Source of the DNA: a virus
Taxonomy: Duplodnaviria > Heunggongvirae > Uroviricota > Caudoviricetes
DNA length: 6,132 nt
IMG/VR virus record: IMGVR_UViG_2663762857_000017
Strand: one strand, 5' to 3'
The notes beneath the pieces are model-generated. The model had not been told where the DNA came from. It did no database searches and saw only the letters and a program-made list of their open reading frames with translations. Of the stretch, positions 727-968 are shown piece by piece; within the stretch, counting starts at the first letter, position 1; every line of letters starts with the position of its first letter. The position numbers were made by a program, and so were the translations under genes.

Positions 727-927
727 TCATTTCTCGTTATTTTTCATGCTGGCCGGGCGCAGATGCGTTGCATCTGTTGCCAGCCTTCTCCTGCAGGCTT
801 CAATAACCCACGCTGAAAAGTTACCGGACCCTTTATGCTCAAGGGCGATGCTGATCTGTTCAATCATGTGATTGGGGAAACGGATATTGCGGGTTGTGGT
901 TCTGCGGGTCCGGTTTTTCGATGACAT
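727..927 (-). CDS. Small ribbon-helix-helix DNA-binding protein, YlcI/DUF3950-like (66 aa)
   Basis: ORF-track ORF 727-987 (-) trimmed to the internal ATG at 927, which has a good SD (AAAGGAAATAAAT-ATG on the minus strand). The product MSSKNRTRRTTTRNIRFPNHMIEQISIALEHKGSGNFSAWVIEACRRRL fits an RHH layout: beta strand NIRFP, helix A, G-x-S turn, helix B. It resembles the small conserved protein found between the lysis and packaging regions of enterobacterial lambdoid prophages (recalled from memory, not searched). Confidence 0.65.
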   Translation of the reverse strand: MSSKNRTRRTTTRNIRFPNHMIEQISIALEHKGSGNFSAWVIEACRRRLATDATHLRPASMKNNEK

Positions 928-968
928 ATTTATTTCCTTTACTGATTGCCATATGACGGGGATTTTAC

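Follow-up and report, generated by a model that had tools for sequence, protein, structure and literature searches.

A small DUF3950 (YlcI/YnfO-family) gene divergent from the HNH-terminase packaging module of an E. coli lambdoid prophage

YlcI, encoded in the DLP12 prophage of E. coli K-12, and YnfO, encoded in the Qin prophage, are small proteins of one family, and their genes are divergent from the terminase small-subunit homologs nohD and nohA, respectively, with ~390 bp between the start codons. Phage lambda carries the same gene, a 64-aa ORF on the minus strand of J02459 (48109–48303) whose product has the same sequence as K-12 YlcI. The right cohesive end is ~200 bp away, and the classic GenBank record shows no feature at this place. 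A CRISPRi essentiality screen of lambda covers the 73 annotated ORFs of the record (PMC10695390), and no mention of ORF 48109–48303 was found in it. The layout is the same in lambda, DLP12 and Qin, so that a last gene before cos/terminase, placed on the opposite strand, is a conserved lambdoid feature. A search of the literature on YlcI, YnfO, DUF3950 and DUF1398 found no functional study.

Arc and Mnt, encoded in the immI region of phage P22, are small DNA-binding proteins of the ribbon-helix-helix (RHH) type. The gene for Mnt runs counter to the late operon, and its product is made in the lysogen. ParD2 of Vibrio cholerae is an antitoxin with an N-terminal DNA-binding half and a variable tail, and it also belongs to the RHH-type DNA binders.

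The gene described here lies in a stretch of viral DNA of 6,132 nucleotides, analysed at its full length and called the window below. The window is the late region of an IS66-disrupted E. coli lambdoid prophage of the Stx/BP-4795/JLK-2012 type. Bases 1–6021 are 98.3% identical to a RefSeq E. coli chromosome, while the last 111 bases (6022–6132) are the end of an IS66-family (ISCro1-like) element. Beyond 6021 the window no longer matches the intact prophage, which leaves the small head gene ahead of the portal truncated, at 43 aa against ~73 aa in the intact prophage. The features of the window are as follows:

254–595, plus strand: lipoprotein moron with a TonB C-terminal domain (Pfam TonB_C), convergent neighbor of the small gene
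596–726, no strand: non-coding DNA beyond the stop codon of the small gene (63 distinct relatives aligned)
727–927, minus strand: small DUF3950 (YlcI/YnfO-family) gene (ORF; Pfam, NCBIfam and PHROG matches; RefSeq WP_021565045.1; pN/pS; AlphaFold; Arc/Mnt profile)
928–968, no strand: 41-nt spacer between the divergent start codons (variability profile, haplotypes)
935–939, minus strand: Shine-Dalgarno sequence AAGGA of the small gene, 7 nt before its ATG (read from the sequence)
969–1334, plus strand: HNH endonuclease gene, divergent neighbor, in the HNH-cos-TerS-TerL packaging module (Pfam HNH, phrog_589, RefSeq)
1029–1057, minus strand: candidate sigma-70 promoter of the small gene, inside the HNH coding sequence (consensus scan)
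1335–1625: cos-like region with GTTAAC repeats
1626–2189, plus strand: TerS, Terminase_2 family
2186–3847, plus strand: TerL
3911–5848, plus strand: protease-capsid fusion

The ORF at 727–927 encodes 66 amino acids, with its ATG at 927–925 and its TGA at 729–727, as given by the ORF list and translation. It is a genuine gene, which has already been catalogued and annotated as a domain of unknown function. The 801 bases from 600 to 1400 are 100% identical in RefSeq E. coli chromosomes, where the ORF is called “YlcI/YnfO family protein” (WP_021565045.1), and they are matched in 1464 of the 5426 complete E. coli genomes, about a quarter. A longer, 86-aa reading from GTG 987 was rejected, as RefSeq calls the 66-aa form and all homologs begin with MS(S/T)KN. 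The GC content of the gene is 0.50 and is not below that of its neighbors. An earlier note on this DNA had described the gene as the only one on the minus strand, with a 41-bp gap between its start (927) and that of HNH (969). Both descriptions agree with the present data: ORFs, profile matches and RefSeq place all other real genes of the window on the plus strand, and the spacer 928–968 measures exactly 41 nt between the two ATG codons.

The family assignment made in the earlier note, YlcI/DUF3950-like, is right. The profile search proposed there as a check gives matches to Pfam PF13132 DUF3950 (68.5 bits against a cut-off of 25, E 4e-19), to NCBIfam NF041551 YlcI_YnfO_N (35.3 bits against a cut-off of 30) and to phrog_949 (E 3e-32). 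Members of the family are proteins of ~50–80 amino acids with the core motif IRFP ... NFSAWV(I/L)(E/D)AC, which is present in the window copy, with I15, R16, F17, P18, F37, A39, W40, V41 and C45 all in place. Of the near-invariant residues only one differs, position 26 being Ser (S26) and not Asn; this codon of helix A (window position 850) encodes Asn in >90% of family members, and the serine is a minor variant. The position typical of the family in E. coli prophages, beside cos and terminase and on the opposite strand, is also that of the window copy. Among 1.8 billion representatives the DUF3950 family forms 98 clusters at 50% identity and is confined to Enterobacterales. The near-invariant Cys of the NFSAWV-EAC motif is lost only in P0216, the most divergent member.

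The window protein shares ~71–73% identity with YlcI and the lambda protein; they have the same size and their first 50 residues are nearly identical. In all of these genomes the gene is the last one before cos/terminase, on the strand opposite to the late genes. The window copy differs in its C-terminal tail, in residue 26 and in its surroundings: the start-to-start gap is 41 nt as opposed to ~390 nt, and an HNH gene stands between the small gene and cos, the packaging module being of the HNH + Terminase_2 type and not of the Nu1/A type. YnfO is likewise a member of the same family, divergent from a terminase small-subunit homolog, but its gene is followed by the co-directional DUF1398 gene ydfO, while the window copy has no partner.

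Over codons 1–50 the window and lambda copies are 81% identical in nucleotides, with pS of 0.67 and pN of 0.05. The pN/pS ratio of about 0.08 indicates strong purifying selection. In E. coli copies residues 1–50 are nearly invariant, while the C-terminal tail is hypervariable. Polymorphism in the region peaks in the half of the spacer nearest the small gene, as seen in the variability profile and in the haplotypes. Two spacer haplotypes occur, with either AAGGA or GAGGA as the Shine-Dalgarno sequence, and the ORF is intact in both. The half nearest HNH (950–968) is conserved; the ribosome-binding site of HNH lies in it, as does a minus-strand hexamer, TAAAAT (968–963).

The layout was surveyed in 80 related IMG/VR viral contigs. 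The nearest recognized gene on the start side is HNH in 78 contigs and Nu1 in one, and it is divergent from the small gene in those 79; HNH is found at a constant offset (−404) in every surveyed contig extending that far. The conserved layout is thus common to two unrelated types of packaging module, HNH + Terminase_2 and Nu1/A. In a tblastn search the small gene was found in 155 phage records. On its other side, the homology among 63 distinct relatives breaks 7–8 nt past the stop codon, at about position 719, which indicates that the gene belongs to and travels with the HNH-terminase module and not with the variable moron region downstream. About half of the related loci carry the TonB moron, and its presence or absence is not linked to the small gene. 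The suggestion of the earlier note that the gene might be a remnant does not hold, as the layout is conserved in lambda, DLP12 and Qin, and the gene is not an oddity of the window's phage either.

The lambda copy is also represented among the collected loci by L005 (2610–2804, minus strand, corresponding to J02459 48109–48303). It further appears on ~3.5-kb or tiny contigs (L087–L118 and many “ena” contigs of ~3.5 kb) labelled with taxa such as Streptomyces, Flavobacterium and Nanosynbacter. Such contigs from unrelated taxa look like contamination of assemblies with lambda control DNA and not like real hosts.

The protein has a mass of 7.6 kDa and a pI of 11.5, with six Lys/Arg residues within the first 18. 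AlphaFold models of the monomer, of moderate confidence (pLDDT about 70), contain two helices with an extended segment in front. The following parts can be distinguished:

residues 1–13: basic N-terminal arm
residues 14–17: putative beta-strand N14-I-R-F17
residues 19–32: helix A (AlphaFold)
residues about 36–52: helix B (34/37–55 in the AlphaFold models)
after helix B: variable C-terminal tail

The predicted helices correspond to helices A and B of Arc shifted by 3 residues. Alignment of the DUF3950 core by hhalign gave P 0.0078 with Arc (whose sequence was verified against 1arq), P 0.044 with Mnt and, in register, P 5.4e-4 with an Arc/Mnt profile. In the latter alignment N14-I-R-F-P18 is placed onto N11-L-R-W-P15 of Arc (NIRFP/NLRWP) and helix A onto helix A, the match spanning only the strand and helix A. 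None of 300 column-shuffled controls reached the observed score of 20.2 (mean of shuffles 8.9, sd 2.2), and the reversed profile gave P 0.52 against Arc/Mnt. The earlier note had presented the protein as RHH. The similarity to the Arc/Mnt profile and the register of the helices speak for this, while curated models and solved structures count against it: 18 family members searched against the curated RHH Pfam families gave no match at E up to 10, no sequence match in the PDB was obtained for the single sequence or for profiles even at E 10, and the fold searches were non-significant. All eight weak Foldseek matches in the PDB are nevertheless RHH-type DNA binders (ParD2, TCP domain), the best being Vibrio cholerae ParD2 with E 3.2. 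Taken together, the small protein quite probably has an Arc/Mnt-like RHH DNA-binding fold.

The likeness to Arc and Mnt thus lies in the small size, in the profile similarity over the beta-strand and helix A, and in the N-x-R-aromatic-P motif. The window protein does not match the Pfam Arc family (PF03869), and DUF3950 has features of its own, namely the NFSAWV-EAC motif with its near-invariant Cys and a longer basic N-terminal arm. The locus also differs from the immI switch of P22, in that the divergent gene is HNH and not an antirepressor and no recognizable operator stands beside the small gene. The likeness to ParD2 consists of a structural match that is the best found, yet non-significant, and of the N-terminal DNA-binding half with a variable tail; in the window no toxin gene is adjacent.

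In the RefSeq context the genes from the Q antiterminator through lysis, moron, HNH, terminase, head and tail genes are all on one strand. HNH therefore lies inside a Q-dependent late operon and needs no local promoter. The earlier note had argued from the short gap that at least one of the two divergent genes must have its promoter within the coding sequence of the other. For HNH, which is read from the distant late promoter, the argument fails, whereas the promoter of the small gene must be sought in or beside the 5′ end of HNH; the paradox was overstated. The finding as a whole is largely ordinary. The further statement, that read-through of the late operon would be antisense to the small gene, stands, given the divergent orientation from HNH and terminase on the opposite strand.

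A consensus scan of the minus strand gave a candidate sigma-70 promoter at 1057–1029 (CTGACA-17-CAGAAT, 9 of 12 consensus matches), from which the leader would be ~95 nt long. Four sites were found where shuffled sequences lead to an expectation of 1.9 (sd 1.4), about 1.5 sd lower, so that the candidate is weak. The TAAAAT hexamer at 968–963, read from the sequence, is likewise a candidate promoter element only. A convincing sigma-70 promoter, terminator or repeated operator did not turn up near the small gene, the interval 727–968 has no promoter-like site on the plus strand, the spacer contains neither repeat nor operator, and the repeats in 560–1700 include no convincing operator near the gene. 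An inverted repeat that brackets both starts (881–905 and 994–1018) was discarded, since on either strand it confers no RNA stability beyond that of shuffles. RNA structure of the region is not significant (z +1.05 and −1.38) and there is no Rfam match. The regions upstream of the window and lambda copies have in common TATGACGC, CTTCAGA and inverted ACACTGAATAC at a constant offset of 66 nt, which were treated as chance: identity on this diagonal is 36%, the same as on other diagonals, local alignment does no better than with shuffled sequences, and a third context has the motifs only in degenerate form.

Evidence on expression comes from the K-12 ortholog and not from the window's phage. In uninduced MG1655 the pair ybcW-ylcI belongs to the core set of “convergent excludons”, present in at least half of 58 stranded RNA-seq samples (PMC12288877), and ylcI is thus transcribed in uninduced cells. 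Where genes run antisense to the lytic genes of a prophage, they are typically accessory loci that are active in the lysogen (PMC7067206). As late transcription would run head-on into the small gene, its expression is expected only when the late operon is silent, and the excludon in uninduced K-12 is in line with this.

Our best explanation, to which we give about an even chance, is that the protein is an autonomous RHH regulator of the prophage state, with a binding site close to its own promoter where the packaging genes are entered. At the right, cos-proximal end of lambdoid genomes the small gene would be transcribed leftward as a unit of its own, from a promoter predicted within the first ~100 nt of the HNH gene. 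The product would fold as an Arc/Mnt-type RHH dimer and bind DNA through the N-x-R beta-ribbon and the basic N-terminal arm. It would be made only with late transcription off, that is in the prophage state or very early after infection, and during lytic growth head-on late transcription would silence the gene. Such a protein would most probably repress transcription or regulate its own gene, acting from a site close to the promoter of that gene, at the start of the packaging genes.

The main rival to a prophage-state regulator is an accessory role in packaging, in which an RHH protein binds near cos and helps or modulates the action of TerS, HNH and TerL, much as TraY helps the relaxase at oriT and IHF helps at cosB of lambda. 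The constant position of the gene would fit well with such a role, as it always adjoins the packaging module or cos in two unrelated types of terminase and travels with the module, and so would the fusions found in satellites. In at least three diverged lineages (P0196/P0214/P0215, P0216 and P0217) satellites encode proteins that link DUF3950, or a diverged variant (hhalign probability 90%), with the N-terminal DNA-binding domain of a small subunit of the Terminase_2 family, and this small subunit is closely related to the TerS of the window. The fusions hint at a link to packaging or to exploitation of a helper. We nevertheless regard a packaging role as unlikely: the gene is on the strand opposite to the late operon and should be off just when packaging occurs, the cos-proximal regions of the window and of lambda share no DNA motif beyond chance, and distant members of the family are found in non-phage operons. 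Packaging of lambda is known to have been reconstituted without any such phage factor.

The fusion loci themselves (L167 4714–5103, L182 8001–8429 and L183 777–1148) lie in satellite-like islands with integrase and primase. The part fused is the N-terminal HTH of the Terminase_2 small subunit, and the fusion gene, unlike the other genes of the island, is on the opposite strand. In L167 it is preceded by three direct GTGCA(C)AAACAC repeats.

Distant members of the family in P4-like and PICI-like islands stand between integrase and primase, again on the opposite strand; others adjoin a TonB-dependent receptor gene, CopC/CopD and DUF2946 genes, or cydAB-like genes. The chromosomal DUF3950 homologs in Pantoea, Rouxiella and other Enterobacterales (L172–L174, L179–L181 and L144–L156) are either co-directional, right after the TonB-dependent receptor gene, or beside the CopC/CopD, DUF2946 or cydAB-like genes, which suggests that in these bacteria they are regulators of metal or respiratory operons.

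It is improbable that the protein is the surviving member of a two-gene module, an orphan antitoxin or a regulator whose partner has been lost and whose tail once bound the downstream product. A conserved N-terminal DNA-binding half with a variable C-terminal tail is typical of RHH antitoxins, the best Foldseek match is the antitoxin ParD2, and in Qin and several Nu1-type prophages the DUF1398 gene is co-directional within ~60 nt downstream. In lambda and DLP12, however, another gene stands between the small gene and the DUF1398 gene, DUF1398 has no reported toxicity and no PADLOC match, and hundreds of copies of the small gene are under strong purifying selection without a partner. The window bears out the remark in the earlier note that no partner toxin is visible, as no co-oriented gene follows the small gene. 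The 33-aa ORF at 629–730, which overlaps it through ATGA and was considered as a translationally coupled partner, is unconstrained, all substitutions among the 63 distinct relatives being non-synonymous. The small gene itself has no match to a defense system in PADLOC.

Another idea, which we consider a long shot, is that the DUF3950 protein binds DNA near cos and has a functional tie to the small subunit of terminase. The end of the lambda chromosome that carries the small gene is packaged last and injected first. With the promoter entering before it, the gene could be a “first-in” one that supplies an Arc-like protein to work at cos or close to it. Such a factor could control the access of terminase or of late transcription to the packaging region, or exclude related phages, and satellites would then use the fusion to a TerS domain to interfere with helper packaging or to redirect it.

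It is hardly credible that the protein is irrelevant, with the ORF a decaying remnant or with only the antisense transcription, or a DNA/RNA element on the late strand, being of importance. In favor of this are the lack of a known phenotype, the behavior of ybcW-ylcI as an excludon in K-12 and a weak terminator-like hairpin that the lambda copy contains on the late strand. Against it, the amino acids are conserved even though synonymous sites have come close to saturation, both spacer haplotypes retain an intact ORF preceded by a Shine-Dalgarno sequence, and there is neither significant RNA structure nor an Rfam match.

In itself the small gene matters little, being a catalogued DUF in about a quarter of complete E. 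coli genomes. A function for it would matter, as the same gene stands unannotated at the extreme right end of lambda, the best-studied phage, and it is also conserved beside the packaging genes of Shiga-toxin phages. Grouping DUF3950 with the Arc/Mnt-type RHH proteins offers a concrete hypothesis, namely DNA binding near cos or the entry point of terminase.

Two elements elsewhere in the window deserve mention. The perfect palindrome AGAATAAGACTTATTCT (232–248), which the earlier note had listed among possible targets of the RHH protein, was rejected as its primary operator: it co-segregates with the TonB_C moron, is found only in loci that carry it, and does not follow the small gene. Within the stretch 209–248 it overlaps the −10 hexamer (TAGAAT) of the predicted promoter of the moron, and it bears a loose resemblance to a Fur box that would agree with control of a TonB-like protein by iron.

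The intergenic region between HNH and TerS (1335–1625) contains five GTTAAC-centered repeats, including the 24-bp palindrome GGCCAGTTAACATGTTAACTGGCC at 1425–1448, and a G-run at 1343–1352; these are presumably cos and TerS-binding sites. The satellite-bearing contig L182 also has an HNH-cos-TerS arrangement, without TerL, and a 26-nt stretch of the window (1389–1414) recurs there between HNH and TerS.
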